A stretch of DNA of 42,282 nt. Source: a virus. Location of the stretch: IMG/VR virus record IMGVR_UViG_3300045988_004668. One strand, given 5' to 3'. Made by a program: the position numbers and the translations under genes. The notes under the pieces are model-generated. The model did no database searches. It saw only the letters and a program-made list of their open reading frames with translations, and had not been told where the DNA came from. Positions 2,459 through 34,403 of the stretch are shown here, piece by piece (the stretch's first letter is position 1; every line of letters begins with the position of its first letter).

Positions 2459-2486
2459 GATCTGCACGCGCACAGGCGTGCAGATC
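2459..2486 (-). promoter_or_regulatory. Hairpin 16 nt downstream of the VR2-target stop codon (candidate DGR target-recognition hairpin)
   Basis: Coding strand GATCTGCACGC-CTGTGC-GCGTGCAGATC: perfect 11-bp stem, 6-nt loop, no U-tract after it. The apex GCGCACAGGC (plus strand) is identical to the apex of the hairpin after VR1. Confidence 0.6.
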
Positions 2487-2502: not shown

Positions 2503-3177
2503 TTAAAGGCAGAAGCCGAAGGCCACGCCATAGGCATAGCTGGCGGAGTTAATGCCCGCGCTGCCGTCGCTGTAGACCAGGCAGAAACCCGCGGAGTTGC
2601 TGGCATACGGAGAGCGGAGCCAGTACCACCATGTTCCTCTTCCCGGAACTTCCTTCACGCGGCTGCGTTCCGAGTCAAGCAGTTCAAACTGTTCGTCTCC
2701 CAGATCGCCGGGCGCCCACTCAGCCGCCGCCTTTGCGCCGAACATTTCCGTAAACGACGGCAGCCACAGCTTGTCCTGCGTCTGCACTTCTTCGCCGTTG
2801 ATCTTCTGCCGGATGGTGCGCGGCACGATCATCGCCTGCAGCTCTTTCGGCAGTCGAGGCAATACATCTTCGTTCAGCCACTTGCGCATCGCGCTGTCCT
2901 TCCAGCCGCCTTTGTTCGTCGCGTGGTCGTTCATTGCGTGCATCTTCTCCATGCAGTCCTTCAGTACAACCATCACGCGGCCTTCCTTCGTGACGTGCAC
3001 CACCTGCGCCGTCAGCTGCTCAAACACATCATTCTCATTGTCTGCGTCCGCCTCAAGGCAGATCGGGAACTCGCTGCCGACCTCCAGCATGATTTCCGCC
3101 AGGTTCATCTGCTCCTGCACGGTCTTCAGCTGCGCCCAGTCCGTCGTGATCGTCGTTCTTTTTGTGATGTCAAACAT
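2503..3177 (-). CDS. Stand-alone DGR target protein 2 (DUF6273-like / C-type-lectin-fold-type variable C-terminus)
   Basis: 224 aa, with AGGAGG upstream of the ATG at 3177. NKGGWKDSAMRKWLN...DKLWLPSFTEMFG...WWYWLRSPYASNSAGFCLVYSDGSAGINSASYAYGVAFGFCL parallels the C-terminal domain of the 30922..32583 protein. The last 34 codons are VR2. Confidence 0.85.
   Translation of the reverse strand: MFDITKRTTITTDWAQLKTVQEQMNLAEIMLEVGSEFPICLEADADNENDVFEQLTAQVVHVTKEGRVMVVLKDCMEKMHAMNDHATNKGGWKDSAMRKWLNEDVLPRLPKELQAMIVPRTIRQKINGEEVQTQDKLWLPSFTEMFGAKAAAEWAPGDLGDEQFELLDSERSRVKEVPGRGTWWYWLRSPYASNSAGFCLVYSDGSAGINSASYAYGVAFGFCL
2509..2610 (-). repeat. DGR variable repeat 2 (VR2), remote from the cassette
   Basis: Aligns without gaps to TR 30200..30301. 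There are 15 mismatches, all where TR has T on the plus strand (A on the coding strand). The first non-A mismatch is at 2611, after which homology decays. Confidence 0.88.
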
Positions 3178-17000: not shown

Positions 17001-20000
17001 GCCCCTGGCTCGCCTTCACAATGGCGACCGACGGCGATGGGATAGCGCCGAGCTGCAGCATACTGTCCATCTTCTTGCCGTCCAGATTGTGAATGGCCAT
17101 CAAGTCCTGCGTCTGCTCAACCGGCTCGTCCAAAGAGAACCGGGCCTTGACAGGCAGCCGCTTCTCTGCTACACTGGCCTCAGAAGCATCTGTGGGCACC
17201 CTAACAGGGCGGTTTTCCGCTTTAGCTGTACCATTCTGGTACTGACGGGGAGGCGCAGGTGCTTTCTTTTCGTTCTCATTCAGCTGGATGGAGTACACAA
17301 ATTCTCCATCCGGCTTTTTCCGTACATTTGCCAGCAGGTCATAGACCCGTCCGTCGATTTGCACGGTCTTCACGAAATATTCCCAACCTGTAAGTCCCTG
17401 GTGCGCTTCGGATGTTTTGCCCTGTTCTTTGCCGCTTCCGCCGTGCTCTGCGTTTTCGACCAGATCAAAAATGTTCCCGTCCGCTCCTGTGTTGATCTTC
17501 GCCTTCCAGCCTCTTGGCGAAGACTTCTTATCGCCGTAGACGTTCTTCCGCAAATCATTCTCATCGAATGTCGCGTAATAGACTTCACCATCTCGCGCTG
17601 TGAACTTCGCTGTGCGGCCTGCGTATTCATTCCGCATGATGTCCATAAAGGCTTCCATGCGCTTCTTGTACGGCAGCTTGCGGACGGCCTCGCTGGTTTC
17701 ATACACTTCAGTCCCGTCGTCCGTCTTTCCGACGTAATCCAGGCTGTCGCTCAGATCGGCATAGACCGTGTTCTCATCAGCTCTGGCAGGCGGTGCCGCG
17801 CGGCGCTGCTCCGGTGTCAGCTCCCGGCGGCTGGCTGCGTCTCGCGCTTCAATCTCGCCTGCGGTATTGCGGTAAAGATCGTAGCTGTCCATCCCCACGC
17901 CGTTCTGAATGTCAATGATGCTGTCTTCCAGCTCTCCGATCTTCGCTTCAATGGCGTCGTCTTCCGCCGTCCACCGGTTCAAATCCCACGGCAGCTGTTC
18001 TTCCAGCCTGGCGATCTCTTCCCGGATGTCCGCAATTCTCGCTTCCTTCGCCTCGTCCCGGTGCTGCTGCCAATACTCCGGCGATGCGCCGCTCGCAAAC
18101 CCTTCTGCCTTCTGAATGGCGTGCTGGATTTCGTGGATGATCGTCGCCTCTGGTGCCGAGCGCAGCTTGCTGTCCAGCGCGATCTTGTTCTCGCTTGGAG
18201 AGAAATAGCCCTGCGTATTGCCCGGCAGCTCCTTGAACTCTACACGCACGTTGCGCAGCTGCGGGTACGCCTGGAACAGTTCCTCGTGATCGATGACGTC
18301 CTCCAGCGTTGCGCTGCCTCTGTCTACGCGCTCGCTTAGTCTCCCGTATTCTCGGCCCCAGGTCTTGTCCAACTCCTGAAGGCGCCCCTGGTCTTCCGGC
18401 TTCCACGCTTCTGCAGAACCGGTGAGCATCTTGTCCACGAGCTTCTGATATTCCGCATAGTCCGGGTGGTTCCGGCTGAAGGCTGCGTCTCCGCCGCGAT
18501 GATACTTCATCTTGCTGTCGTCGATCTCGAAACGCAGCTTTCCTTCCATGCCGGTGTGCCAGCCGGTTTCCTTTCGCACGCGCTCATCGTCTTCGCCCTG
18601 CATCTGAAGCTCCTGTGCGCGGGCGAGTGTCTTCTGATCTGCTGTGTTTGCATTCACGCCGCCGTAGCTGTAGCGCTCTGGCGGCCCAGTCCTGCGCTGT
18701 GTCGCCGCTGCCGTCTCGCTGCCCGGCGTGGTGATCTTCCGCTCCTGCAGAACCGCCTGCGCCTCGCTGCGGTACTTGTCGGCGTTCGCGCCGAAGAAGT
18801 TGATTCCCGCGTAAGCGTCCGCGCAGATTTCTTCTTTGACGATGCCGTAAGCCTCGGCCACTTCCTGCCCGGATGCGTGTTCCGGCAGATCGTACACACC
18901 GCGCAGGTTCTTGAGGTACTTGTCCATTATCGCGTCGAACTCTTCCCGGCTGTACTGTTCGACGATGGCCCGCTCGATCTGCCGCACAAGCCCCGGATTG
19001 TTGGCCGCGTAATCATGGAAGGCCTCGTGGTCTGCGATCTGGTCGATGTTCAGATAGCGGTGGTCTGCCTGGATGATGATGCCGTTTTCTGTGTAGACGC
19101 CGCGTGCCGCGCTCACCGAGCCATCTGCCTGGCGGATGCGGATGGAACCGAGCACATACGTCACCGGTTTCCCGGTCTCATAGGAAATGCGCTGCGCCGT
19201 CTGCTGCATCTGCGCATCCCAGTGAGATTCCGGCATGACCTGAATCTCGCGTTCCTCCGTTCCGTTCGGCAGGCCCAGGCTCTGGCTGCTTACTTTTTCG
19301 AGCCGTAGAGTTCGTCCAAGATTCTCTCTTTCAACAGCTGTTCTGCCCTGGTTAAAGGTGCGTTGTGGTCTGCCTTCTGCCAGGATTCCACTCTGTCCGC
19401 CGGTACTCTCACCGAGAATCCGTCCGCCGTCTCCATCAGGTAGCTGCTCGCTCTGCTGTTCTGTGCCTGGCTGCTGCCCGGCTGGAAGCTGTTCTGTGCC
19501 ATTGTTCATTCCTCCTTCATGCGTTGTTGCTTCATTCTGTACGCCGGGCTGCTGGCTCCCTGGCACCTGCTGCGCGGCAGTGTTGACCGGCTGCTGATTT
19601 TGTGCCTGCACGTTTCCGGACACGACCGCTTCGATGTCCGCGTCCGTCATCTGCCGCATGACGTTCTGCACTTCCGGGAAAGAAAGCAGCTTGCTGAGAA
19701 CTTCGCCATCTGTGATCTGCCCGCGATAGAACGCCTCAATGCCGCGTGCCATCGACTGTGCGCGTTTTCCGCTCACGCCCATGGTCTCCAGGCGTTCCAG
19801 CGGTGTGGCAGTCTGTTCGGTCTGCACCTGCTGCGGCGTCAGCAGCCCAGCTTCCTGCTGCGTGCTCTGTTCCAACTGCTGCGGCTGCACGGCTGCGGCC
19901 TGCGCCGCCGTCGGAAGACTTGGCTGCTGTGCCTGCTGGTTTTGTTCCGCTGCCTGCACTGCAATCTGCGCAGCCGCTGCCGCTGCGTTCCCATTTTGCA

Positions 20001-22203
20001 GAGCCTGCCCGCTCTCCGGCGGCTGTGTGTTCTGCGTTCCAGCCTGTGCCTGCTGCAGTCCCTGCTGGATGGCGGTCTGCAGCTCCTGCTCCACCTGCTT
20101 CTGCATCTGCGGGTCTGTCGGTGTCGTTGGCAGGTCTGCCGCCGTTGGCAGCTGGCCCGTGCTTCCGCCGCCCGGCAGCATGACGTTCGGTGTCTGCATG
20201 GCGCTGGACGCCGCAGCGTACCCGTTGACATACGCCCGCATCGCCTCGTCGATGAGATCGAGCGTTTCATTCAGATTGTCCACGGCCTTCTGCTGGCCCG
20301 CAATGTAATAGCTGTTGACGCTTTCACGCAGGCTCTGCGTCTGCTGCATGATGAACTGCGCCCGCTGCGCCTTTGCTTCCGGCGTCATGTTTTCCGTTCC
20401 GGCCGTCATTGCGCGGTATCCCTGCTCAATGGCCTGGTATGCCTGGTTCATCTGCGCCTTCTGCTGCTGTGTCGTCTGGTAGCTGCTGATTGCGCTGCTC
20501 AGCACAGAGAACGCAAACGCCGTCACGAGGTTTGTGGCGATCTCTTCTTTCGTCGGCTTTTCATCTGCCGCAAGATAGCCGACCGCCTGGTTCACGCTCG
20601 CGTTCGTCACGCCGCTTGCTGTCTGCCGTAAAAACTCCATGAACGGCGTCATCTTATGCGTATCACGCAGCACGTTGGCAAGCCCTGTTCCTACCAGTCC
20701 GCCTGCCAGGTTGCCAGCCATGCCCTGTGCGCCGCTGATGGCAATGCGTTTGAGGTAATCTTCCGTGCTCATGTCGCCCATGGCGGCTGCGCCTGCATTG
20801 TGTACGGCGTCAGCTCCGGCAAAGCTCAGCGCTCCCGCCGCCACCTTGAAGCCGAGGCTGCCGGTGTTCATTCCTGCTGCCGCAAGCCCGGCGCCCGCCG
20901 CTTCTCCGATGCCGGACATCAGCGCCAGACTTCCCGCGATCTTCGCGCCGCCCGCGAGCACCGGATGCTCTGCCTGCGCCCGCTGCGCGTTTTCCATCTG
21001 CCGGTGATACTCATCCTCGTTCGCGCCGAGCGCTTTTCCGACTGCAGCCGCAGCCGATGTCACACCCAGTCCCTCCTGCAGCCCGCTCGCAACCGCCGTC
21101 TGCTTGGAGTACAGTCTTGTGTAAAGAACATCGTAAATCTGCTGCCACTGCTTTGCCGCCTCTGTGTCACCCTTGCGCATCGCTTCCTGATACGGCGCAA
21201 AGGCCGTCACATTCTGCTCATAGCCTAGAAGCCCGCCGAACCCGCTCTGCGTGCCGATGATCTCTTCTGCCTCCTGCTTCTGGCGTTTCGTCCAGATTCC
21301 CGGAACGCTTGCCAGCGCAATGAGCCGGTCTTTATACCGTCCCACATTTTTCGCGGTGTACGTCTCCGGCCGCTTCGTGCCCTGCATCTGGCTCTCGCTC
21401 TCCTGGCGGTCGATCTCGTCCTGCAGCTCCTGGATGCGCCGGTCTGTTTCACTCTGCGCAGACTCCGCCTGGAAGGTTGGCAGCGTCGAATCGCTGGCTT
21501 TGCCCAGCATGGAAAGAATACTGGGCTGCTGCGCCTGCTCCTGCTTCTTCTGGCTCTCCAAGATGGCGAGCGTCCGCTTCATGCCCTGCAGCTGATCGTG
21601 CGCCACCGCTTCGTCCAGCGCCTTCTCGCGCTGCGTGGTGTAGTAATAATCCTGCGCATCATGCAGCTTTTCTGCGTAGCTGTTCGCAGCATCCACTGTG
21701 TCGAATACACCCAGGAACTCCCCGGTGTCGTAGAAGTGCTGCAGAATTTCGTCTCCGTCGCTGCTTCGGTATGCCTTCCCGTCTTTCATCCAGACCGACG
21801 GAAGCAACACCTCCTTGCCCTGAATGTTGAAGCTCGTGCTGTCCACGGTCGAGATGCTGCCGTCGGCGTTCCGATACTGCGGCCGGTTGTAAAGGTCGAT
21901 GTTGCCCACGCCATACTGGCCGATCTCCTGGTTGTATCGTTCCTTCTGCCGCTGAGAAGTTGGGGCCGGTGCGCCGAGTCCTGCAATGCTGGCAGGCGTT
22001 GCCGTCCGGTCGAATCCGCTTCTCTCGCTCTGAGGGGCCTTCTGCTCCTGCGCCTGGCGGCGCTGCTGTGCGGCGCTCTGCGCCTGGCGGATGAAGTCCT
22101 GCTTATTGAGGACGCCACCGGCCTCCTGGCCGGTGGTCTGTTCCCAGTTGCTCTGCTGCTTGTCCGCTTTGTTCAGGAAAGATTTCTTGGAAATAACGCT
22201 CAT
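11083..22203 (-). CDS. Giant 3,706-aa multidomain virion/ejection-type polyvalent protein
   Basis: A single uninterrupted ORF with AGGAGG before the ATG at 22203. It carries an N-terminal NIDLYNRP-type module, Gly/Ala-rich hydrophobic segments, Gln/Ala-rich linkers and two HExxH motifs (HEAFH, HEIQH). Repeated xFSxDEP-delimited modules occur, and there is a second hydrophobic segment near the C-terminus. Confidence 0.85.
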   Translation of the reverse strand: MSVISKKSFLNKADKQQSNWEQTTGQEAGGVLNKQDFIRQAQSAAQQRRQAQEQKAPQSERSGFDRTATPASIAGLGAPAPTSQRQKERYNQEIGQYGVGNIDLYNRPQYRNADGSISTVDSTSFNIQGKEVLLPSVWMKDGKAYRSSDGDEILQHFYDTGEFLGVFDTVDAANSYAEKLHDAQDYYYTTQREKALDEAVAHDQLQGMKRTLAILESQKKQEQAQQPSILSMLGKASDSTLPTFQAESAQSETDRRIQELQDEIDRQESESQMQGTKRPETYTAKNVGRYKDRLIALASVPGIWTKRQKQEAEEIIGTQSGFGGLLGYEQNVTAFAPYQEAMRKGDTEAAKQWQQIYDVLYTRLYSKQTAVASGLQEGLGVTSAAAAVGKALGANEDEYHRQMENAQRAQAEHPVLAGGAKIAGSLALMSGIGEAAGAGLAAAGMNTGSLGFKVAAGALSFAGADAVHNAGAAAMGDMSTEDYLKRIAISGAQGMAGNLAGGLVGTGLANVLRDTHKMTPFMEFLRQTASGVTNASVNQAVGYLAADEKPTKEEIATNLVTAFAFSVLSSAISSYQTTQQQKAQMNQAYQAIEQGYRAMTAGTENMTPEAKAQRAQFIMQQTQSLRESVNSYYIAGQQKAVDNLNETLDLIDEAMRAYVNGYAAASSAMQTPNVMLPGGGSTGQLPTAADLPTTPTDPQMQKQVEQELQTAIQQGLQQAQAGTQNTQPPESGQALQNGNAAAAAAQIAVQAAEQNQQAQQPSLPTAAQAAAVQPQQLEQSTQQEAGLLTPQQVQTEQTATPLERLETMGVSGKRAQSMARGIEAFYRGQITDGEVLSKLLSFPEVQNVMRQMTDADIEAVVSGNVQAQNQQPVNTAAQQVPGSQQPGVQNEATTHEGGMNNGTEQLPAGQQPGTEQQSEQLPDGDGGRILGESTGGQSGILAEGRPQRTFNQGRTAVERENLGRTLRLEKVSSQSLGLPNGTEEREIQVMPESHWDAQMQQTAQRISYETGKPVTYVLGSIRIRQADGSVSAARGVYTENGIIIQADHRYLNIDQIADHEAFHDYAANNPGLVRQIERAIVEQYSREEFDAIMDKYLKNLRGVYDLPEHASGQEVAEAYGIVKEEICADAYAGINFFGANADKYRSEAQAVLQERKITTPGSETAAATQRRTGPPERYSYGGVNANTADQKTLARAQELQMQGEDDERVRKETGWHTGMEGKLRFEIDDSKMKYHRGGDAAFSRNHPDYAEYQKLVDKMLTGSAEAWKPEDQGRLQELDKTWGREYGRLSERVDRGSATLEDVIDHEELFQAYPQLRNVRVEFKELPGNTQGYFSPSENKIALDSKLRSAPEATIIHEIQHAIQKAEGFASGASPEYWQQHRDEAKEARIADIREEIARLEEQLPWDLNRWTAEDDAIEAKIGELEDSIIDIQNGVGMDSYDLYRNTAGEIEARDAASRRELTPEQRRAAPPARADENTVYADLSDSLDYVGKTDDGTEVYETSEAVRKLPYKKRMEAFMDIMRNEYAGRTAKFTARDGEVYYATFDENDLRKNVYGDKKSSPRGWKAKINTGADGNIFDLVENAEHGGSGKEQGKTSEAHQGLTGWEYFVKTVQIDGRVYDLLANVRKKPDGEFVYSIQLNENEKKAPAPPRQYQNGTAKAENRPVRVPTDASEASVAEKRLPVKARFSLDEPVEQTQDLMAIHNLDGKKMDSMLQLGAIPSPSVAIVKASQGHTQYGDYTLVFPRQSIDPQADRRNKVYGADAWTPTAANAIVEREVNYEAGRAAEQKIAQLANQVAGGIFSRYSVISGRVGEVARMDEAELAKQLARDDAVRAAYLAEQGKDIEPVLKEKVWDSFGNLALQEYTEKIGAQELAQLYVKLETGERLTAAELETARESIMASWIADHEYALSRRPELRETRTARQRDKISDARVEDFIRNAEALYEDGGQTRDGVDRYATQDKLREAVDDADVEAWVRGQIRGVLGEPGIYNGKERFTASGKRRSFRETHGAYTAENIVKAMNRASARGESYWGVGAKGILSVATPRYKSVDAIHADEGRLQNMPEEEYNRLLQELDKRIGGIVADVQKTAGSYDMDEIAGLLMENAGQDAMRIQQAFSRQGYNIDGGLATEIAGMYRQAAEMPTGYFEAKPQRVVTFDEPVCIAPDDCPPERLEKMKAAGLNVIEYEAGNDEQRMEIARSLKGMRFSVDEPQAETGGEIEQASESKPAEPEQKEKKPRKKNETKPVAESLPIIAKRNLRQDMQGIFSIPEGRRAEINQIIDGLADRMLKNGELTQEDRDAFFDRMYAEGVMEVAADEYLQQARSEIAGRRIYVPESVKHEFGDDWGYFRKKAFAAGVMLVNDTSAAGIDMVNAELADTLPGMFHADDLDSREILENIVQTAEEGKSQNMSLAQYTALLAGQEYVSEDEVLDNIERQMDEALRTFTRTAKLEVHLRDRTGVKIAQEREKSAAARQREALSRAKERQQRKEMSQRQREYRELKEQQKKTLKALQWLAKNQYRAPEELQGTWDEVLGDLDIYAVSAANEMRYSKKYDATWKDLAEMYKDAQANDPNFLPSKELEKIVHRLDNKKIADMDLNALQDLYKAAVGLRTEFYNRNNVINDDMNRLFAEVYTDSKKELDFGAQTKAGEAARQGKKLDSLFNQEQLSPMNVMQRMAGWNPNSAWYSMAKQLEKGERDIRDYTVSATKQLREFLTEHEDWAKKADGQGDDGIWYEVKIPQLVGALEVGKPPKFGDTITVWMTPTQKVHMYLESKSTENLRHMEGGRTFADKTLYSQGKRREAFAQGKTVRMAPETVKAIVGSLTPEEQELAQALEQYYNVFAKKEINRVSNILYGYDKAVSKNYTPIYTNSNYTKSELGVYDATAEGVGNLKSRQFSKNPSYNIGAFDAFERHVEQTARFVGMAIPARNWQTLLNWRERENSMADIITHDWGDESLKYIQDLVQTLQGGAASTRDSVSMGAEKVFSNYIGAVLGANPSIVFKQLGSIPLAGAWLDFKNFPSPGQVKRIDRSLIEKYTQELDWRTLGYSTPETKQLKENPNWTQTNKFTNFIFGGGAITAMDGWAASVLWPWAENKVRAEFPELETGSQEQIDSGSSPFYQKVAEVFNEAVERSQSTSDEMHQGTLRKSKNPVTRAFTMFKSDSSQTYNALRQRAGEAEYYKRIGDTENYNKAKHGLGVAFLAAVGGYIWAQGIEFLMNLWKRKGKAYRDEDGNLTAGSVAKEMALGLVGDLAGIVTYGEELADVIGNIITGDKWYGIDTPGLEQLSDVVETIVEQGQNGLDVLKDAADVVKNGGSMGEYLHRHSGDIVGGIKDLAAAAATYLPGISVNNLEAYLLGTVRWASPELAAAYDDALATANKNQMKGLRGAELERKISDTLHNRRVETDETTNETLASLYESGFTKAVPSDTPGSISVDGEDRKLSAYQKQVYDKTWSSAVGSRLVALAASDVFQTADDETREKMLSGLYEYAGEKAKTAVFDDYKVKTSTQKADDVLATGAEMADYLELKLAGAVDKYLDAIDGGLDAQSAKDVALGMAELAPEEGKKTVSDVQKWRVAIDAVDGTSAQRDALLAVMKDSTKQKYEIADSYGIEARTWVQLKEILPQFDEDGNGSYKGEEIENAIDALNGHSGIMLPGGDGPQQLTNEMRAVLWQLFTGSKSAKNNPYSERVGSQVIAEREKAKRED

Positions 22204-26650: not shown

Positions 26651-27424
26651 TCACGCCAGGCCCGCGAGCTTTGCGAACCGGTACAGTACCGTCACAAACT
26701 GTTCTCGCGTCATCATGTCCTGCCACATATAGTTCGGCTCGCCGTCTTCCAGCGTGCCGCCGCCGAGCACGATGCCCTTTTCCGTGGCCCACTGCCGGGC
26801 TTCTTCGCTGTACTGGCTGCAGTCGTTGTCCTGCAGGTCTTTGCGCATCTGCCCAAAAAGTTCTGCGAATCTATCCTTGTCCATGTTCTCGTCCTCCATT
26901 TCTCCGTCGTCTAATGCCATTACCGTGTGTCCCTGGGATACCAGGATGTCGCCGCGCCGCAGCCAGCGGTCGTCCGTCAAAAACTTCTTCCCGCTCAGCA
27001 TCTCGAACTGTCCGGTCGTCGGCCAGTCGTGCAGCATACAGTAAGTCGTGCAGCTGTTGCCCTGGCGCCTGAAGAGTTTCTTCAGCTCCGTCGCGCCTGC
27101 CGAGATCGCGCACAGCATCATAAATGCCGAGCAGTCTGTCTCGACCGGCTTGTTGATCTTGCCGAGCGCGAAGTCTACTGCCTCCGCAGCGGCGTATGCC
27201 GTGTTGCGCCCGTCCATGTCATAGCCGATGTTCCGGTTCCGTACGCCGTCTTCGCAGGCCTGCGCCGCCCGCTCCGACATGGCCGGGTCTTTGAACCGAA
27301 GAATCCCCAGCCAGCTTCCGTTGTACCAATACGAGAAGTTCAGCTCCCGGCCCGTCTGGTTGCCAGGCTTCTGCCCGCGTCCGCCGGTCTCTCCGAGGCT
27401 TGCCTGGCCGATGCGGATACTCAC
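26651..27424 (-). CDS. Endolysin: peptidoglycan amidohydrolase (NlpC/P60-like Cys peptidase type) with SLH-like C-terminal wall-binding segment
   Basis: GETGGRGQKPGNQTGRELNFSYWYNGSWLGILRF...NIGYDMDGRNT...ETDCSAFMM...GHTVMAL fits the peptidoglycan amidohydrolase family pattern. The C-terminus (ARQWATEKGIVLGG...MTREQFVTVLYRF) is SLH-like. The GTG start is coupled to the holin stop (GTGA). Confidence 0.8.
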   Translation of the reverse strand: MSIRIGQASLGETGGRGQKPGNQTGRELNFSYWYNGSWLGILRFKDPAMSERAAQACEDGVRNRNIGYDMDGRNTAYAAAEAVDFALGKINKPVETDCSAFMMLCAISAGATELKKLFRRQGNSCTTYCMLHDWPTTGQFEMLSGKKFLTDDRWLRRGDILVSQGHTVMALDDGEMEDENMDKDRFAELFGQMRKDLQDNDCSQYSEEARQWATEKGIVLGGGTLEDGEPNYMWQDMMTREQFVTVLYRFAKLAGLA

Positions 27425-27738
27425 TGCGCGTCACCTCCTGCCGGAAGCAGCCCTTTTTTGAGGTCATATACTGCCGCTTCGATCATGGCGTCCAGGCGCG
27501 TCTCGTCGAGCGTGACGCCGTGTTCCGCCAGCCAGTTGATGACGTATGCCTTCTTCTCCTGGCCGCGCCCGGAGCCGACATAAATCTGCTCCGCTGCGCT
27601 AACCGCAATGCGCACCCAGGCGTTGATCTCCGTCTGCTGCTGCGCTGTTGTTTTCGAGCGGATGTACGGGATGACGATGGCGGTAATGACCGCCGCAATG
27701 AGCGCGAATACTGTTTCGATGATGGGTGTAATGTTCAT
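27421..27738 (-). CDS. Holin, LL-H-type
   Basis: An N-terminal TM helix (IIETVFALIAAVITAIVIPYI) is followed by AWVRIAVSAAEQIY...GQEKKAYVINWLAEHG, as in LL-H family holins. It lies directly upstream of the endolysin. Confidence 0.7.
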   Translation of the reverse strand: MNITPIIETVFALIAAVITAIVIPYIRSKTTAQQQTEINAWVRIAVSAAEQIYVGSGRGQEKKAYVINWLAEHGVTLDETRLDAMIEAAVYDLKKGLLPAGGDAQ

Positions 27739-27750
27739 GGTGATCTCCTT

Positions 27751-28017
27751 TCAGATTTCTTGATCGGTTTCTTCTGCTTCCTTTTTTCCGACTGCCCCGA
27801 AGCCCTTCCGCTTTTCAAACAGACTCTTCAGGCAGTACAGAGCGACAACGCCGACGATCTCCGTCACGGCCGTCTGGCTCAGCTTCTCGGCGATGGACTC
27901 TTTTCCGAGGTATGCCAGGATGTAGCTGCACCACACCCAGCCCACGCCGTTTCCCAGGCAGAACCAAAGCGCCCGCTTTGTGGTCGTCTTTAAGCTGGTG
28001 CGTTTCTGCTGCTTCAT
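27751..28017 (-). CDS. Two-TM small membrane protein (second holin/antiholin candidate)
   Basis: ALWFCLGNGVGWVWCSYILAYL and VTEIVGVVALYCLKSLF are hydrophobic helices, and the C-terminus is charged. The ATGA start is coupled to the upstream stop. Confidence 0.55.
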   Translation of the reverse strand: MKQQKRTSLKTTTKRALWFCLGNGVGWVWCSYILAYLGKESIAEKLSQTAVTEIVGVVALYCLKSLFEKRKGFGAVGKKEAEETDQEI

Positions 28018-28253
28018 GTTCCGTGCTCCAAATCGTCGATGCGATGGTTTGCAACCTTCAGCTTTTCCTCGAAGACCGCCGCCTCCTCTTCCAGATGGTA
28101 GGTGCGCTCCACCAAACCGTTGTGCTTCGCTACTTTCTGCTCCAGCTGCTCCAGCCGGTATGCAATGAGCGCCGCGCTTTTCCGGTTCGCCAGGTATGTC
28201 CCGATGAGCGTACCGGCAAGGCTCAGCACGGCCACCACGATGGTCTCCGTCAT
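28014..28253 (-). CDS. N-terminally anchored coiled-coil protein, XhlA-like lysis-cassette component (tentative)
   Basis: MTETIVVAVLSLAGTLIGTYL is a TM helix. It is followed by a coiled coil ending in NHRIDDLE. ATGA is coupled to the upstream stop. Confidence 0.45.
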   Translation of the reverse strand: MTETIVVAVLSLAGTLIGTYLANRKSAALIAYRLEQLEQKVAKHNGLVERTYHLEEEAAVFEEKLKVANHRIDDLEHGT

Positions 28254-28834
28254 GCCGTCACCTCTGTCCATCCATACACGCCCGGCTCCCACGTGTTCGC
28301 GTCCACATCGCTCGTCCAGTGTTTGCCGTTGCGGCTCACTTTTGCGCCCTTGGCGTAGGCATCCGTGCTGCCCACCGGCTGGCTCCACTCCGGCCATTCC
28401 TCTGCCGGGTCAGAGATGCCCACCCACAGCGACGGGCTGTCCTCCGGTTTCCAGCCCGCCTGCGAGGTGTGCGCCTTCAGGCATTTGTAGAGCTTGCCGC
28501 TGCGCTCCCTGATCTGCCCCACAGTGTAGGCCACCGGGTATTTCCATGGGCTGAACAGCTCCGCGTGTTCACCGGCCGTCACGCCGTCGATACTTCCGTT
28601 CTCAGCCAGTGTGACAAATGCGATGGCGCTTGCCGCCTGGTTTTCCTGCAGGAATGTTCCGGTGTCACGTTTTACCAGGATGATCTGCGACAGCAGCATG
28701 GGCGTTCCGCCCACGGCCACGCCTTCGGCCTCATCCTCTCCGCATAGCAGCCAGAACCCGTCCGGATGCCTGCGGATATAATCAGGGGCTTCCGTCAGTG
28801 CAATCACGCCCCCGTCCTTCCGAATTTCGTACAT
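28250..28834 (-). CDS. Protein with two CBM5/12-like carbohydrate-binding repeats
   Basis: YTVGQIRERSGKLYKCLKAHTSQAGWKPEDSPSLW and AYAKGAKVSRNGKHWTSDVDANTWEPGVYGW fit the chitin-binding type-3 aromatic pattern. ATG at 28834 follows AAAGGAG and lies 31 nt inside the RT gene 3' end. Confidence 0.6.
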   Translation of the reverse strand: MYEIRKDGGVIALTEAPDYIRRHPDGFWLLCGEDEAEGVAVGGTPMLLSQIILVKRDTGTFLQENQAASAIAFVTLAENGSIDGVTAGEHAELFSPWKYPVAYTVGQIRERSGKLYKCLKAHTSQAGWKPEDSPSLWVGISDPAEEWPEWSQPVGSTDAYAKGAKVSRNGKHWTSDVDANTWEPGVYGWTEVTA

Positions 28835-29961
28835 TGATGGTCTCCTTTCTCCCCGAACAGCTTTCGATACAGCTTGTCCGTCTTCCGCAGCACCTTCCAG
28901 CTGTTTCCCCGTCGCATGTGGCCCTTCCAGCTCTCATACGACGTGCGCACGTCTTCTTCCGTCATGCGCCCGTCATCTACCCACCGCCGGAACTTCCGCA
29001 GCTTCTGCCGCATCTTTCTGGTGCTTTTGCGCTGCACCTTCCGAATGACGCCGCCGGTCTGCGTCAGCTTGAACTTTGTTTTCAGAAACCGCACGCCCTG
29101 CCTGATCGGCAGGATGCGCGTTTTCTTCTCGCTCAGCTGCAGCCCGATACCGGCGCAGTATTGCCGGATGCGTGCGGCGCATTCCTCCAGATACCGGACG
29201 TCCTCGCAGATGAGATACCCGTCGTCCATGTACCGGCCGTAGCCCCGGATGTGCAGCTGCTCTTTGATGAAATGGTCAAGGCCGTTTCCCAGCATCAGCG
29301 CGTCGATCTGGCTCACCTGGCTGCCCAGTCCGAATCCTCGCTCGCCGAAGTCCGCCATGAAGCTCTCTGCCCGCTCCCGGACGCGCTCGTCGTAGAGCCT
29401 GCGCCGGTTCTCCCGATGAATCGGTTCCTGCGGTGCGGAGTTGAAATAGTCCGTGAAGTCGAACACCAGGATGCCGCCCTGCATCCCATGCTTCCGGTAA
29501 TGCCGCTGCAGGTGTCGGTTCATTCTGTCCATGGCAAAGTCAATTCCCTTGCCCTTCAGACTCGCTGCGTTGTCGTATATGAAGGCCGATGAGAACAGCG
29601 GCACCAGCGCATTGTCACATAAGCACCGCTGCACCACGCGCTCTGAGATGTGGACGCTCCGGATGTGCCGCAGCTTTCCGCGCTCCATGATGTCAAACTC
29701 ATGGAACCCCATCGTCTTCCACGTTCCGTCCATCAGCGCCTTCCGCGTCCTGGCCGTGTTCTCAGACAAACTCGCCAGATACCGCTGCGTCGAGCACTTC
29801 CAGCGCACGCCCTTGCAGCACGCCAGCCCCGCTTTGTATAGGTTCTCGTAACTGAATACCTGCTCAAAGCTGCCGCACGCTTCGCTCCTGGCCCGGCGTT
29901 TTGCTTCCCGCCCGGCGCGGCGTCTTTGATACCGGCCCTCTTTTCGCTCTTCGCTTGTCAT
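28804..29961 (-). CDS. DGR-type reverse transcriptase
   Basis: KLRHIRSVHISERVVQRCLCDNALVPLF, ASLKGKGIDFA, GLGSQVSQIDALMLGNGLDHFI (the SQ motif typical of DGR RTs) and YGRYMDDGYLI (YMDD catalytic box). It sits next to TR and Avd. Confidence 0.92.
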   Translation of the reverse strand: MTSEERKEGRYQRRRAGREAKRRARSEACGSFEQVFSYENLYKAGLACCKGVRWKCSTQRYLASLSENTARTRKALMDGTWKTMGFHEFDIMERGKLRHIRSVHISERVVQRCLCDNALVPLFSSAFIYDNAASLKGKGIDFAMDRMNRHLQRHYRKHGMQGGILVFDFTDYFNSAPQEPIHRENRRRLYDERVRERAESFMADFGERGFGLGSQVSQIDALMLGNGLDHFIKEQLHIRGYGRYMDDGYLICEDVRYLEECAARIRQYCAGIGLQLSEKKTRILPIRQGVRFLKTKFKLTQTGGVIRKVQRKSTRKMRQKLRKFRRWVDDGRMTEEDVRTSYESWKGHMRRGNSWKVLRKTDKLYRKLFGEKGDHQCTKFGRTGA

Positions 29962-30199
29962 GTATGGTTCTTCTCCTTGCCCGTTCGGGCACCCGCCGTA
30001 AGGGATGATTGTCGGGTGCGCGTTCTACCCTCGTGGCAGTCCGGCTATGAAACAGGCCCGCGCACATCGGCCTGCCATGCAAGCAGCGTCCAGCCGTCTG
30101 CACCGGCGGATTGTTTTGGCTTTTGCCGGGAATAAGCTCTCCTTCTGCATAGGTACTGCTTCGCCGCCTTCCGGCGGTTACTGCGTCAGACCGTGCTGT
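29962..30199 (-). ncRNA. TR-RT spacer, expected to be part of the structured DGR RNA
   Basis: 238-nt non-coding stretch between TR and the RT start codon. It contains CCGCC-GGAA-GGCGG (GNRA-type tetraloop hairpin on the minus strand, about 30162..30175) and further short GC stems. Track ORF 29864..30217 starts inside TR and is not credible. Confidence 0.5.
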
Positions 30200-30332
30200 G
30201 CAGAATCCGAAGGCCACGCCATTGGCATTGCTGGCGTTGTTATTGTTCGCGTTGCCGTTGCTGTTGACCAGGCAGAAATTCGTGGAGTTGCTGGCATTCG
30301 GCGAGCGCTCCCACCAGTTGGCTGCAGAGCCG
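30200..30332 (-). repeat. DGR template repeat (TR), 133 nt
   Basis: Intergenic copy of the VR sequence carrying 33 coding-strand adenines. In the VR frame it would encode 13 AAY (Asn) codons: GSAANWWERSPNASNSTNFCLVNSNGNANNNNASNANGVAFGFC. Confidence 0.92.
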
Positions 30333-30366
30333 ACGGCAACAAAAAACAGAGCTTAACCCATGTTGT

Positions 30367-30819
30367 CTATTCTTCCGAAACTCCGGCAGGCCCGTCCGGC
30401 AAATCCTTGTACCGCTGCCGGTCTTTCTTCCGGACAGCTGCCAGCAGCTTCGCTTCCTCCGCGATCATCGCACCCCACTGCTCCATGGCTTTCCCAATCC
30501 ATTTGCACCCTTCCGGGTTCTGCCGGGCCGCCTCGTACAGTAGCTGCAGCTTCGGGTCGAGATTCTGCAGTGCAATGTTTGCGCGTGTCAGCTCGTCCCG
30601 GCGCATCTGCGCCTCGTGCTGATTCGTCGGCCAGATGTTGTTGGCCGCTGTCGCGTGCTCATGCACGTCGCTGGCCAGCTGCATGATGCGCGACGTGAGG
30701 AAGAACGTGTACCGCTTCGGTGCCTTCATGCAGCAGCTGAGTGTGAACGCTTCCAGCTTCTTCGCCGTGTCCACGAACTGCATGCTGCTTTCGCTCCGTT
30801 TGGATTTGTAGACCGACAT
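30367..30819 (-). CDS. avd: Accessory variability determinant (Avd)-like four-helix-bundle protein
   Basis: 150 aa, helical and basic. KAPKRYTFFLTSRIMQLASDVHEHATAANNI fits the Avd/four-helix-bundle family pattern. It sits in the canonical position between target gene and TR. Confidence 0.75.
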   Translation of the reverse strand: MSVYKSKRSESSMQFVDTAKKLEAFTLSCCMKAPKRYTFFLTSRIMQLASDVHEHATAANNIWPTNQHEAQMRRDELTRANIALQNLDPKLQLLYEAARQNPEGCKWIGKAMEQWGAMIAEEAKLLAAVRKKDRQRYKDLPDGPAGVSEE

Positions 30820-30840
30820 ACCGTCTCGTCCTTTCTTGCC

Positions 30841-30878
30841 GCCTCCTGCCCGCAGCGCACAGGCTGCTGGCCGGAGGC
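30841..30878 (-). promoter_or_regulatory. Hairpin 43 nt downstream of the VR1-target stop codon (candidate DGR target-recognition hairpin)
   Basis: Coding strand GCCTCCGGCCAGCAGC-CTGTGC-GCTGCGGGCAGGAGGC: 14 of 16 stem positions pair, and the 6-nt loop is identical to the loop after VR2. Confidence 0.55.
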
Positions 30879-30921
30879 AGAGCTTTCTTCGTTTTGAAAT
30901 CTCGGCTTTCCGGATTCTGGA

Positions 30922-32583
30922 TTAAAAGCAGAAGCCGAAGGCCACGCCAGTGGCACCGCTGGCGCTGTAAACGTACGCGTCGCCGTCGCTGCCGACCAGG
31001 CAGAAATACGTGGAGTCGCTGGCAAACGGCGAGCGCTCCCACCAGTAGGCTGCAGAGCCGTTCCGCTTCTTGACCTTGCTGTTGCCCGCCTTATAGTAAT
31101 CGTACTGCGTGCCTTCGCCTGCCGCCGAGTAGCTGGTCGAGCCGAAGATTTCGACCTCGCTGAGCAAAAACAGCTTGTCCGATACCGTCTCGATCGTCGA
31201 GCTTGCGCCGCCCACGGATGCCTTCTTGCTCACCTCGCGGATGCCGTTCTGTACCTCCGTAGGCATGAGCGCCAGAATCGCAGGCAGATGCGTCGTGCGC
31301 ATTGCGCTGTTCTTCCAGCCGCCGGAGTTCGTGTCCGAGCTGTTCATAGCCTTTGTGTCGCCGTAGCAGTCGTGCAGCTGGAAGGTCAGCGGCGCCTTCC
31401 CGCCGGATGCGTAGGTGTCGTGGTTCTTGCCGATGATGTCCACCTGATAGCTCGTGCCATTGATGGTCATCGTCTTGCTGTTGCCCACCGCCCATGTGCT
31501 CGGCACGCTGCCCGAATGGCACGCCGCGATGATGGAAGCCCAGTCGTTGTCCGCGAAGTTGTCCTTCAGGAAGCTCACCGTCACCGCGCAGGTCTTGCTC
31601 GCTGGCGCAGTATAGTTTGTTCCTGCTGCCACACTGATGGTGATCTTTGCGCTGCCGTTGGCCTTGCCCGTCACCGTCACCGTATTGCCCGATACGCTCA
31701 CCGTCGCCGCCGCTGTGTTGCTGCTCACGGCGCTGATCGTGCCGTTGCCGCTGCGCGTCACCGTGATGGTCTTGCTCTTCGTCGTGGTATCCAGCGTCAT
31801 GCTGGTAGGGGAGATGCTGAGGCTCCCCGCTGCCTTCCCGATACTCCAACTCACGCTCTTCGGCGTGGTGCTTCCGTCGCTCCAGCGGTAGTTGCTCTTC
31901 GGCGTGAAGGTTGCCGTGTAGCTTCCCGCGTTCGTGCCGGATGTCGTGCCGCCGATGGTCAGCTGTGTCGTGCTGTAGTTGTTCCATGTGGGGGACTGGC
32001 TGCCGCCGTTGTAGGTCAGCGTCCCGCTCTGGCTCGGCACCGCAGAGATCGTCTTCCGGTTCACCGTCACGCTCGTCGTCGCCGTCTTCGTTACGCCGTT
32101 TTCCGTGTAGCTCACCGTGATTGTCTGCGTGCCGACCGTGCTCAGTACCGTCGGGCTGCAGCTGTAGCCGGTCACATTGGCCGTGGCGCCGTCGGAGTAG
32201 GTGGCCTTCACCACCATGCCCGCGCTCTGGAAGCTGTCGCCGTACTCATAGACCTTCTTCGTCGGCTGCGCCGTGATCTCGATCTTCGTCAGCCGGTGCA
32301 CCACCGTAATGGCCTGCTCCGCCGTCTTCGTCACGCCGCCTTCCGTGTACTCGATGGTGACGCTCGTCGTGCCGTCCGTCAGTGCCGTGTCCGGGCTGAA
32401 GCTGTATCCCGTCGCCTTGAGCGTGGCGCCGTTGGAATATGTCGCCGTGACGATCATCCCTGCCGGGCTGAAGGTTTCACCGGAGACGTAGGTCGTTTTT
32501 GCTGGCGGCGTTGTAATGGCGATCGACACCAGCTTCACCCCGCCGCCTCCGCCGCCTACCATGTTGAAGACTAATCCGTTCAT
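30922..32583 (-). CDS. DGR target protein 1: Ig-like-repeat adhesin/receptor-binding protein with DUF6273-like variable C-terminal domain
   Basis: It has an N-terminal Gly run, two Big_3-like repeats (ITTPPAKTTYVSGETFSPAGMIVTATYSNG..., ITAQPTKKVYEYGDSFQSAGMVVKATYSDG...) and a Big_2-like repeat. These are followed by NSGGWKNSAMR...DKLFLLSEVEIFG...YWWERSPFASDSTYFCLVGSDGDAYVYSASGATGVAFGFCF. The ATGA start is coupled to the tail fiber gene. Confidence 0.9.
   Translation of the reverse strand: MNGLVFNMVGGGGGGVKLVSIAITTPPAKTTYVSGETFSPAGMIVTATYSNGATLKATGYSFSPDTALTDGTTSVTIEYTEGGVTKTAEQAITVVHRLTKIEITAQPTKKVYEYGDSFQSAGMVVKATYSDGATANVTGYSCSPTVLSTVGTQTITVSYTENGVTKTATTSVTVNRKTISAVPSQSGTLTYNGGSQSPTWNNYSTTQLTIGGTTSGTNAGSYTATFTPKSNYRWSDGSTTPKSVSWSIGKAAGSLSISPTSMTLDTTTKSKTITVTRSGNGTISAVSSNTAAATVSVSGNTVTVTGKANGSAKITISVAAGTNYTAPASKTCAVTVSFLKDNFADNDWASIIAACHSGSVPSTWAVGNSKTMTINGTSYQVDIIGKNHDTYASGGKAPLTFQLHDCYGDTKAMNSSDTNSGGWKNSAMRTTHLPAILALMPTEVQNGIREVSKKASVGGASSTIETVSDKLFLLSEVEIFGSTSYSAAGEGTQYDYYKAGNSKVKKRNGSAAYWWERSPFASDSTYFCLVGSDGDAYVYSASGATGVAFGFCF
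30928..31060 (-). repeat. DGR variable repeat 1 (VR1)
   Basis: Gap-free 133-nt alignment to TR with 18 mismatches, all at TR coding-strand adenines. All 13 TR Asn codons are replaced (Y,F,D,Y,G,D,D,Y,V,Y,S,G,T). Confidence 0.92.
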
Positions 32584-34403
32584 GTTCCCACCTCAATTCT
32601 CGTGATGTTCACCGTCAATGCCGCCGTCGGCGTCTGGCTGCAGTGGAAGGTCATCTTGCCTGCCTGCGTCACATTGTCCGCGTAGATGATCGCCTCGCTG
32701 TACGCGCCGAAGCTGGCCGGTGCAGGCGTCACCACATACGCATACGCGCCCGTCAGGATGTTCGCGTTGCTCACCGTCTGCGCTTTGCTACTCCAGCTGG
32801 CAGCCGCCAGCGTCACCGTGAAGGAAACAGCTTTCCCGCTCTTTGCGTTCCAGGCCGTCCGCTCCGCTGCTGTGACGTGCTTCGTGGTATCGGCCTCGTG
32901 GTCGTCGAGGTTGCCCTGCACAGTTGCCGCAGCGCCTGCCGTTTCTTTCCCTGCAAGTGCGGTTCGGATGTCGCTGTGCGCCGCGCTGGAGCTGTTGTGT
33001 GCCGACACCGCGCTGGCCGCTTCCGACTTGCCGGTTCCTGCCGGGTCTGCGCCTGCCTGCACCGCCGTTACCTGGTGCGGGTTGTCCGTGTTCCCGGTAT
33101 GTGCGCCCAGGCTTGTAGCGTTGGCCTTCTTGTCAAGCTCTGCCTTCACGCCGCCGCTGGTCACAGGGTTCGTGCTGTTCGCTGTCGGGGCTGCGTCGAA
33201 GGTCAGTTTGTCCTGCTTGCCGTTCCACTTGGTGCGCTCCGCTGCCGTGACGTGCTTCGTGGTATCAGCCTCGTGGTCGTCCAGGTTTCCCTGCACGGCG
33301 CCCGCCTTGGTCTCGGCGGTTCCCGCTGCGTCTGCGCCTACCATCTCTGCGGTATAGTCTCCTGCCTTCGGAACAACTGCGCCGCCTCGTCCGTTGAAGC
33401 TCGTCACGCCGCCGCCCGCGATGGCCTGCGCACTGTCGCACCAATACTTCGCGTTGTTGGTGTTCTCGCCCTCGCGTGTTCCTGTTCCGCCCACGGCCCA
33501 GCTCTCAGCTGCTTTTGCGTTTGCCTCCACGCCCTGTGCGCTGCTCTGCGCAAGCTCCGCGCTTTCCTGCGCGTCCGTGGCCGCCGCCTGGGCGTCCGTC
33601 TTCGCAGTCTCTGCTGCAGCCTTGGCTGCCTGCGCCGCCTGCTTGTCCTGGCCTGCGCTTGCAGCGGATGCAGCTGCTGCCGTCTTGCTGCCGACCGCCT
33701 CATCTCTTGCCGCTTCCGCAGCCGTCTGCGCGGTTGCCGCATCTCCAGCCGCTTTTGTCGCTGCCGCGCTGTCTGCCGCGACGGATGCCTCGCTTTTCTT
33801 GGCGTTCGTCTCCGCCATCTTTGCTGCCGCCTCAGACTCTGCCGCATTGCTGGCCGCCGACTCTGCGCCTGCCTTCGCCGTGCGGGCATCCGTGGCCGAC
33901 TGCGCCGCCTGCGTGGCGTTCGTTGTCGTGGCCTTCTGCGCGTTCTCCGCCTTTGTGGCGGCCTCCTGCGCCGTGTCGGCTGCCCCGGAAGCTGTCTGCT
34001 CGGAAGCAGCTGCCGCTGCCGCCTTCGTGCTGGCGGTTGCTGCTGCCGTCTGCGCAGTGCTTGCGTCGGTCTGAGCGCTCGATGCTGCCGACTGCGCGGC
34101 TGTCTTCGCCGCTTCTGCCGCTGTCTTGGCCGCCTGCGCCTGTGAGATCGTCGCAGAGACCAGGTCTCCCTGCAAATCTGCAAGCGTCAGAATCTCACGC
34201 CACGCGCTGTCGTCTTCGTTTTCATACTTCCACTGCAGCTGCCCGTCGGTCTCGCTGTAGCGGATGACGACCGGTTCGCCGCCGTCGCCTTTCAGGCTGG
34301 CCAGCCACTCTTCTTCGGTTCCGATGAAGCCGTGCTTCACGGCGATGCCATAAGCCGTGATGTAATACCCGCGCCACTCGGTTCCGATCTTCGTGTAGCT
34401 CAT
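32580..34403 (-). CDS. Tail fiber protein with long Ala-rich coiled-coil stalk
   Basis: The stalk is roughly 300 aa of A/Q/T/S/E/K heptad-like sequence. It is followed by a duplicated VQGNLDDHEADTTKHVTAAERTxWNxK module and a beta-rich C-terminus. GGAGGTG precedes the ATG at 34403. Confidence 0.8.
   Translation of the reverse strand: MSYTKIGTEWRGYYITAYGIAVKHGFIGTEEEWLASLKGDGGEPVVIRYSETDGQLQWKYENEDDSAWREILTLADLQGDLVSATISQAQAAKTAAEAAKTAAQSAASSAQTDASTAQTAAATASTKAAAAAASEQTASGAADTAQEAATKAENAQKATTTNATQAAQSATDARTAKAGAESAASNAAESEAAAKMAETNAKKSEASVAADSAAATKAAGDAATAQTAAEAARDEAVGSKTAAAASAASAGQDKQAAQAAKAAAETAKTDAQAAATDAQESAELAQSSAQGVEANAKAAESWAVGGTGTREGENTNNAKYWCDSAQAIAGGGVTSFNGRGGAVVPKAGDYTAEMVGADAAGTAETKAGAVQGNLDDHEADTTKHVTAAERTKWNGKQDKLTFDAAPTANSTNPVTSGGVKAELDKKANATSLGAHTGNTDNPHQVTAVQAGADPAGTGKSEAASAVSAHNSSSAAHSDIRTALAGKETAGAAATVQGNLDDHEADTTKHVTAAERTAWNAKSGKAVSFTVTLAAASWSSKAQTVSNANILTGAYAYVVTPAPASFGAYSEAIIYADNVTQAGKMTFHCSQTPTAALTVNITRIEVGT

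Follow-up and report, generated by a model that had tools for sequence, protein, structure and literature searches.

The sequence analysed here, called the window throughout, is IMG/VR record IMGVR_UViG_3300045988_004668, a viral DNA of 42,282 nucleotides (nt), and all coordinates are positions in it. On its minus strand, which holds all parts of the element described below, lie in order a target gene (target 1) that ends in a variable repeat (VR1), an avd-like gene, a template repeat (TR), a spacer and a gene for a reverse transcriptase (RT), which is the canonical order of a diversity-generating retroelement (DGR); a second variable repeat (VR2) is found in another gene, target 2. A complete DGR in this target - Avd - TR - RT arrangement had been proposed from the letters of the window alone (the original prediction), and the repeats, the RT, a predicted Avd, an RT-2 RNA in the spacer and the target proteins confirm it. 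We regard it as very probable that the window carries a complete phage DGR that diversifies two targets, both of which contain the DUF6273 domain.

Repeats, targets and proteins of the cassette

The TR (30200..30332) is 133 nt long and contains 33 adenines. Gapless alignment to VR1 (30928..31060; 133 nt, spanning the final 44 codons of target 1) reproduces the predicted 18 mismatches over 133 positions, all 18 of them at an adenine of the TR (hypergeometric P = 1.3e-13). VR2 (2509..2617) is homologous to the TR from TR position 25 onward; when TR positions 32-133 are aligned with 2509-2610, mismatches occur at 15 of the 102 positions and all 15 fall on adenines, of which 29 are present (P = 2.2e-10). 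Mismatches at other bases were sought on realignment, and none occurs in VR1 or in 2509-2610; the 7-nt extension of VR2 holds a single one, a synonymous change of G30 to T at a site where other contigs keep the G. A scan of the window with the TR, in which every adenine was allowed to be any base and at most 3 mismatches were accepted, returned only the TR, VR1 and VR2, and shuffled sequence gave 0 matches. The predicted restriction of divergence to adenines thus stands for both repeats, with one amendment: the difference at TR position 127, where VR1 and VR2 carry a C (30934 and 2515, respectively), is a fixed TR/VR difference and not a product of mutagenesis, so the informative differences number 17 in VR1 and 14 in VR2.

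The TR is noncoding and is located between the avd and RT genes, yet it keeps the reading frame of the VRs and, within it, 13 AAY codons. All 13 are altered in VR1, as originally counted. The corresponding count for VR2, given as 11 of 13, had to be corrected, because the homology starts at TR position 25 and leaves the first AAY codon outside VR2; the repeat carries 12 AAY codons, 10 of which are changed. The 3' ends of VR1 and VR2 each lie 3 nt before the last sense codon and stop.

Target gene 1 (30922..32583) encodes a protein of 553 residues, the size predicted, in which Big_3 immunoglobulin (Ig)-like repeats (1.2e-14) are followed by a C-terminal DUF6273 domain (9.4e-14), and which matches phrog_37900 (8e-99). 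The start codon of target 1 and the stop codon of the preceding gene overlap (ATGA). The preceding gene encodes a fibre-like structural protein of 607 residues with matches to PHROG tail protein and tail collar fibre families (32580..34403), and its position directly upstream places target 1 in the virion module. Target gene 2 (2503..3177) encodes a 224-residue protein that consists of a single DUF6273 domain (1.6e-24), is devoid of Ig or anchoring domains, and is located among genes for replication, nucleotide metabolism and DNA modification. Residues 403-553 of target 1 and 72-224 of target 2 are 41% identical (E = 1e-31). The two targets had been described as structurally different; this identity and the common DUF6273 domain instead make them paralogues that end in the same domain and differ by the N-terminal Ig-repeat extension. 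In DGRs the variable residues are borne by a ligand-binding surface of C-type-lectin (or Ig) fold. DUF6273 has been described as C-type-lectin-like (PMC10743442, PMC11792537). An alignment of target 2 gave no signal against the variable protein Mtd of phage BPP-1 in hhalign, and sequence and profile searches of the PDB with target 2 returned designed helical proteins or nothing.

The RT (28804..29961) has 385 residues and matches RVT_1 (1.4e-8) and phrog_1423 (3e-81). DGR RTs are distinguished by [LIV]GxxxSQ, where group II enzymes have QGxxxSP, together with a catalytic YxDD. The motifs ERVVQ, GLGSQVSQ and YMDD noted earlier are all present, the first as part of SERVVQ. Kinship with group II or retron RTs had been named as an outcome that would speak against a DGR; the closest solved relative is instead the BPP-1 DGR RT (8ub7-8ube, labelled in Foldseek as a DGR ribonucleoprotein reverse transcriptase; E = 2.8e-18 for 8ub7), with a group II maturase at 1.7e-5. 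BLASTP aligns the protein with the BPP-1 RT, Brt, at 23% identity over 324 residues (E = 1e-22), and in this alignment LGSQVSQ faces IGSLTSQ of Brt and YMDD faces YMDD. Among reference genomes, the closest RTs are 71-72% identical and come from metagenome-assembled genomes of Oscillospiraceae and Butyricicoccaceae.

The accessory variability determinant (Avd) of DGRs is a small, basic protein that folds into a four-helix bundle. The avd-like gene (30367..30819) encodes 150 residues, again as predicted, and matches phrog_3206, annotated as 'Avd protein of DGR' (2.3e-6). An AlphaFold2 (AF2) model built from a 29-sequence alignment has a predicted local distance difference test (pLDDT) score of 86.7 and contains four long helices, and its best TM-scores, 0.82-0.83 with root-mean-square deviations of 2.7-3.4 Å, are to the bAvd chains 8ub8_C, 8ub7_E and 4dwl. 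The earlier description of an Avd-like helical protein is upheld in that the model is a bundle of four helices whose best superposition is with Avd; by sequence the resemblance is weak.

The 3' end of the repeat and the spacer RNA

The repeat ends in a 22-nt GC-rich segment that is conserved in all copies (TR positions 112-133, GGCGTGGCCTTCGG-A-TTCTGC; 30200..30221), and the flanking sequences diverge after position 133. Within the segment there is one fixed difference between donor and recipient, at A127 of the TR (30206). Position 127 is a C in 45 of 45 distinct VRs and an A in all TRs of the wider family, with the exception of an altered TR at locus L143 (L-numbers are labels of related loci or contigs that were compared with the window). 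In every RT clade examined, spanning 46-100% identity and including that of phage Shimadzu, the TRs have GGA-TTCTGC-like and the VRs GGC-TTCTGC-like ends. None of the A sites past TR position 111 is variable. By analogy, we take the 22-nt GC-rich end to be the counterpart of the initiation of mutagenic homing (IMH) element of the BPP-1 VR and of its TR relative IMH*, the difference between which fixes the direction of transfer in DGRs. IMH and IMH* of BPP-1 differ at five bases (PMC3240598), whereas here a single base, A in the TR and C in the VR, which lies beside the covarying helix described below, appears to be the entire discriminator.

The spacer (Sp) separating the TR from the RT gene, whose predicted length of 238 nt was confirmed, matches the full RT-2 RNA model (Rfam RF03077, model positions 1-222) at 29971..30195, scoring 140.6 bits against a gathering score of 40. 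The RNA starts 5 nt after the TR and ends 10 nt before the RT start codon. An RT-2 RNA also directly precedes the RT in Shimadzu and in six related loci, is present in every related DGR examined, and starts 5 nt past the TR in eight DGRs. Among the RT motifs reported by Weinberg et al. in 2017, only RT-10 was tied to a DGR, that of BPP-1, and the others were speculated to serve DGRs (PMC5737381).

The last six positions of the TR (128-133, TTCTGC, 30200-30205), which immediately follow A127, are complementary to Sp 52-57 (GCAGAA, 30143..30148), a proposed strand of a priming helix that is followed by a conserved GGAG. Six sequence types of this helix were found among the related elements (TTCTGC/GCAGAA, TTCCGT/ACGGAA, CTCTGC/GCAGAG, TTCCAC/GTGGAA, TTCTGT/GCAGAA and CTTCGT/GCGGAG), and all 36 cells of the resulting table are paired, with compensatory changes at 4 of the 6 pairs; at registers shifted by 1-3 columns at most 72% of the cells are paired. 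The helix lies outside the Rfam RT-2 model. In BPP-1, the 2'-OH of Sp A56, the pairing partner of TR U118, primes cDNA synthesis, and copying of the TR begins with G117 (PMC6182149). By analogy, the TR-spacer helix probably sets the priming site, with priming from approximately Sp A57 and copying that would start from or next to A127. A start at this position is consistent with the lack of transfer 3' of TR position 111.

The altered TR mentioned above belongs to a clade whose RT is 63% identical (L143, 5618-5751 of that locus). The sequence in its TR slot keeps the TR flanks on both sides (as seen by comparison with L142), carries the VR-type C at the discriminator, and differs from the TR of its clade by ten changes of A to another base. 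The VR of L143 has all ten of these changes in addition to further changes at adenines. Such a pattern is expected if a TR that has lost the discriminator can itself be overwritten and then serves, in its altered form, as the template from which the VR is renewed; gene conversion with an earlier VR as donor is possible as well. The corrupted TR seems still to feed its own VR.

In other DGRs the VR is followed at a short distance by a GC-rich inverted repeat with the capacity to form a hairpin or cruciform (Guo et al. 2011, PMC3240598). Downstream of VR2, DNA folding reveals a perfect 11-bp inverted repeat with a 6-nt loop (2459..2486), a candidate target-recognition hairpin or cruciform. Its loop does not have the form GRNA, no T-run was found 3' of it, and in L012 the stem is kept and the loop changed.

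Diversification in natural populations

Relatives of the repeats were collected from IMG/VR and a metagenome collection by fixing TR positions 56-67 and 112-133 and leaving the 44 nt between them (68-111) free. This anchored scan yielded 20 TR copies and 45 distinct VRs, i.e. 16 of VR1, 21 of VR2, 5 in a third gene context (VR3) and 3 in a fourth (VR4). The TR is nearly invariant, with 19 of the 20 copies identical over the scanned 78 nt and all but one of about 15-16 copies identical over the full 133 nt. Within the free core of the 45 VRs, A sites are changed in 448 of ~900 cells (about half) and non-A sites in 3 of ~1080 (0.3%); adenines are replaced by G in 54%, T in 31% and C in 15% of cases. 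The flanks of contigs bearing VR1 or VR2 are 91-99% identical to the window (92-99% for those with VR2), and mostly 96-99% in both cases, and the VR3 and VR4 contigs have only the target C-terminal domain in common with it. The RT is intact in these relatives, being 100% identical in one and 97-99% identical in ten others. Completely monomorphic VRs had been named beforehand as an outcome that would speak against the element, and the 16 distinct VR1 and 21 distinct VR2 sequences, alongside RTs intact at 97-100% identity, are the opposite of it.

Two further observations agree with this picture. In an independent protein collection, target 2 has thousands of members that form many clusters at 90% identity, and the high-entropy columns among 40 cluster representatives (191, 194, 196, 197, 202, 204, 206, 208-211, 214 and 216) coincide exactly with its AAY and ACG codons in VR2. 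In L107, L108, L109 and L110, the TR carries 1-9 non-A substitutions, each of which is also present in the VR of the same locus, and hence the TR passes its sequence on to the VR. Compared across assemblies, these population data are strong evidence that the DGR is active in nature. Relatives of the RT are encoded in more than 220 viral contigs and those of the variable domain in more than 340; the DGR family is large and common in the human gut.

Some VRs occur away from a cognate cassette. The C-terminal DUF6273 part of target 1, and only this part, is found at 82-89% amino acid identity in other phage backbones (L184, L185, L193, L200 and L201, at ~10001-10663 in each; also L006, L009, L016, L018 and L021), and the VRs of these orphan modules fit the window TR at almost all non-A sites. 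In the orphan (VR3) contigs no RT, Avd or TR was found within 10 kb, and two pattern scans of the contigs found no TR. L200 and L201, whose backbones share only ~1.3 kb, have identical VRs, as do L184 and L185, whose backbones are 97% identical; given identical VRs in different backbones, the orphan modules look frozen rather than diversified. The fourth target context has the downstream flank TTTTAATCCAGCATCT. In all four contexts the motif YTTTAATCCRG (30915-30927 and 2496-2508 in the window) continues past the TR homology, spanning the last codon, the stop codon and five noncoding bases; it is not found in Shimadzu, and it could reflect common ancestry of the paralogues or form part of a target-recognition element. 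A different mismatch is seen in the 58.8-kb record IMGVR_UViG_3300045988_005966 (L004 and L121), whose VR2 fits a window-type TR perfectly and whose resident cassette has an RT 71% identical to that of the window and a TR that differs at 9 non-A sites. At L173, the VR1 matches its own TR at one variant stretch only. These two cases could be chimeric assemblies, recombinants, or VRs that have not been rewritten since recombination.

The evidence above bears on three other accounts of the locus. That the repeats are merely paralogous segments which diverged in the ordinary way, or which arose by gene conversion, next to an RT from a group II intron or retron, might be argued from the fact that the two targets are indeed paralogues and that the best NCBIfam match of the RT is a group II RT/maturase (E = 9.6e-18), followed by a retron model. 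The scores, however, are far under the cutoffs (64 bits against 300 for the group II model TIGR04416, and 25.7 against 235 for the retron model NF038233), Rfam finds neither group II intron nor retron RNA anywhere in the window, the RNA adjacent to the RT is RT-2, and the closest solved relative is the RT of the BPP-1 DGR. Paralogous divergence would have to confine its mismatches to one base (a chance of ~1e-13) and to leave a noncoding TR with a reading frame and 13 AAY codons. This account has next to no probability, as it is refuted by the adenine restriction, the RT-2 RNA, the RT match to BPP-1 and the population data on the VRs. It is also very improbable, although less so, that only VR1 is diversified and that VR2 is a frozen or orphan copy left by duplication or recombination. 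The same variable module does occur in unrelated backbones, where neither RT nor Avd nor TR was found within 10 kb, and in one contig a window-type VR2 stands alongside a TR that is not its cognate. Nevertheless, there are 21 distinct VR2 sequences that differ at A sites only within flanks that are 92-99% identical, the variability of the thousands of target 2 members in 90%-identity clusters is confined to AAY codons, the IMH-like end with C127 is preserved in VR2, which is followed downstream by a strong inverted repeat, and Shimadzu retains a homologous second target with an adenine-restricted VR of its own.

A third account, which we consider unlikely but the least improbable of these, accepts a genuine DGR and holds that this copy of the genome is now silent, so that the VR differences record only past activity of the lineage. 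The Faecalibacterium prophages Lelie and CP11 offer a precedent, as they show no read-level variation in culture although population alignments vary (PMC11792537), and some VRs are identical across samples (L002/L008 and L257/L260/L262). Against silence, every component of the window element is intact, its RT matches that of one relative at 100% identity and those of ten others at 97-99%, nearly every near-identical genome has a different VR1 and VR2, and recent point changes in TRs have already been copied into their VRs.

Several observations nonetheless weigh against the complete two-target DGR that we favour, or against parts of it. The evidence for activity concerns populations, compared across assemblies, rather than this one copy of the genome, and the mismatch between VR2 and TR in record 005966 means either a chimeric assembly or a VR2 that is not rewritten. 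No BPP-1-like hairpin is evident near VR1, where there is only an imperfect 43-nt hairpin with a z-score of -1.9, and the hairpin of VR2 begins 22 nt away from the repeat. The helix table has few rows, retained only registers free of mismatches, and includes a Shimadzu register that was picked by complementarity; the priming site is placed by analogy only. The Avd-like protein scores 19 bits with NF033474, whose cutoff is 80; searches of the PDB by sequence and profile returned no Avd but designed helical proteins or nothing, hhalign detected no signal between its alignment and BPP-1 Avd, and the Foldseek E-values of the model are only 0.2-0.7. Poor Foldseek E-values are usual for helical bundles. 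Finally, the AF2 model of target 2 has a pLDDT of 60 that falls below 50 across the VR, and its Foldseek matches are meaningless.

If the favoured reading, a complete DGR with two targets, is correct, then its mode of action may be sketched by analogy with BPP-1. An RNA comprising the 3' end of avd, the TR and the RT-2 spacer would be bound by a complex of RT and Avd, and TR 128-133 would pair with Sp 52-57. The helix would bring a spacer adenosine (approximately Sp A57) into place, and the 2'-OH of this adenosine would prime the cDNA, beginning at TR A127 or immediately 5' of it, after which the RT would copy the TR toward its 5' end, misincorporating opposite adenines. The cDNA would then replace the VR sequence. 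Its 3' limit would be the GC-rich IMH-like end, with C127 of the VR never overwritten, and its 5' limit would be set by the extent of homology, i.e. position 1 in VR1 and approximately position 25 in VR2. The predicted outcome is randomisation of 13 (VR1) or 12 (VR2) AAY codons together with ACG and AGC codons, with no stop codons created, and the changes would fall in the C-terminal stretch of DUF6273 both in the Ig-repeat protein next to the fibre gene and in the small single-domain protein.

Target 2 is diversified as intensely as the fibre-adjacent target 1, has no Ig or anchoring domain, lies among replication, nucleotide-metabolism and DNA-modification genes, and has a homologue in the unrelated myovirus Shimadzu (orf43) that is flanked by genes for a methyltransferase and the Erf recombinase. 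A doubtful but conceivable role for it is that of a diversified binder expressed with the replication and nucleotide-metabolism genes and directed, for example, against a variable host factor or defence component, rather than that of a receptor-binding protein of the virion. The reading of position 127 as a single-base discriminator has better support than this one.

Genome setting and relation to known elements

Positions 1-119 of the window are identical to 42164-42282 (a 119-nt direct terminal repeat), and in related contigs the end of the window is joined to its start. The window thus represents a complete circular or terminally redundant genome of a human-gut phage, ~42,163 bp in length, and since it closes end to start, the distance between VR2 and the TR is ~14.4 kb via the terminase end and not 27.6 kb. 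Almost the whole phage genome is transcribed from one strand. Its modules run from the small and large terminase, portal and major head protein genes to the fibre-like gene, the DGR and the lysis genes, and then through a gene for a 3706-residue polyvalent protein and an integrase/transposase-like gene to the genes for replication and nucleotide metabolism, which include target 2. Genes for a tail tube, a sheath or a tape measure were not recognisable in any part of the window genome. In the GenBank phage collection, megablast with the cassette found no near-identical DNA.

Several neighbouring features deserve mention. On the minus strand, a 194-codon open reading frame (ORF; 28250-28834) encodes a CBM_5_12 carbohydrate-binding module (8.5e-15); it has 31 nt in common with the 3' end of the RT gene and precedes XhlA-like, holin-like and endolysin-like genes (26651-28397). 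The polyvalent-protein ORF (11083-22203, minus strand) takes up a quarter of the genome and contains a PBECR5 nuclease domain (2.4e-55) as well as LPD23 and LPD3 polyvalent-protein domains. A type II hammerhead ribozyme (1942-2012; 46.7 bits with Rfam RF02276, whose gathering score is 37) lies on the same strand as target gene 2 and ~490 nt downstream of it, within a 650-nt stretch that has no recognisable gene and separates target 2 from a replication-initiator gene (1095-1850). Homology between the window and many related contigs ends at ~8599-8601, adjoining a minus-strand gene (8644-9699) that matches phrog_4646 (integration and excision, 'transposase'; 2.3e-116), and one related copy sits inside the 356-kb contig VOFB01001027.1. 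Together, the homology break, the phrog_4646 gene and the copy in the 356-kb contig indicate that the phage is probably temperate, and the break at ~8600 is probably an attachment site or a swappable integration module.

The element is a new member of a known family of two-target gut-phage DGRs and leaves the general picture of DGRs unchanged. What it adds is modest and drawn from sequence comparison, namely the apparent assignment of RT-2, the predicted covarying TR-spacer helix and the putative single-base discriminator between donor and recipient. RT-2 would thereby gain a role, that of spacer RNA in a large clade of DGRs, and the helix to the TR end predicts where priming occurs. The discriminator is simple to test and would be useful for engineering DGR-based mutagenesis. 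The related loci also constitute a natural dataset, with an invariant TR, 45 VRs in at least two genes, tracking of TR changes into VRs and orphans that are apparently frozen, which illustrates the direction of transfer and the need for the components to be in cis.

The DGR of BPP-1 resembles the window element in its gene order (fibre, target, avd, TR, spacer, RT, lysis), in an RT that is homologous over its full length (E = 1e-22) and an Avd whose predicted fold is alike, in TR length (134 nt versus 133 nt in the window), and in adenine-restricted diversification that uses AAY codons. Both have a structured spacer RNA with a short TR-spacer pairing located ~56 nt into the spacer, and in both the fixed base differences between TR and VR are found at the 3' end only. 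The two elements differ in that the RTs are only 23% identical and that Avd and the targets have no detectable sequence similarity. Furthermore, the spacer RNA of BPP-1 is RT-10 (PMC5737381) as compared to RT-2 in the window, IMH and IMH* are distinguished by five bases as compared to a single base inside the repeat, and 2 clear TR-spacer pairs contrast with a covarying helix of 6 bp. The variable domain is Mtd in BPP-1 and DUF6273 in the window, which in addition has a second adenine-restricted target elsewhere in its genome.

The closest annotated relative is the Roseburia phage Shimadzu (LR596903), whose RT is 47% identical. Shimadzu has an annotated Avd, an RT-2 RNA that scores 145 bits, and a DGR whose gene order, between fibre and lysis genes, is identical to that of the window, with VR1 at the end of the tail-fibre gene. 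Its second, adenine-restricted VR lies in orf43, which encodes a 209-residue protein 34% identical to target 2 of the window and has a methyltransferase and an Erf recombinase as neighbours. The fixed A (TR)/C (VR) difference and a 6-bp complement between TR and spacer are present as well, the helix sequence being TTCCAC/GTGGAA instead of that of the window. Shimadzu has a contractile tail (sheath, tube and tape measure), whereas the window has no recognisable tail-tube module and encodes the 3706-residue polyvalent protein, and the large targets of the two phages are alike only in their C-terminal domain.

The original prediction regarded the two-target layout and several flanking features as unusual, but these have already been published for related phages of gut Clostridia (PMC11792537, PMC10743442, Shimadzu LR596903). 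Lelie and CP11 each have a large and a small target that both end in DUF6273 with the VR at its C-terminus, and population alignments of CP11 show peaks of variation and loss of adenine at both VRs (PMC11792537). The gut phages nd4 and nd12 likewise have two targets, of which the small ones are single DUF6273 domains, and ~13% of DGR cassettes are quoted as having two targets (PMC10743442). As in the window, two VRs are served by one DGR in Lelie and CP11 and in nd4 and nd12. The RTs of nd12, nd4 and Toutatis are 37%, 32% and 33% identical to that of the window, respectively. CP11 differs in size (~36 kb versus 42 kb in the window), and the large targets of nd4 and nd12, termed 'tentaclins', carry their variable domain at the N-terminus, whereas that of the window carries it at the C-terminus.

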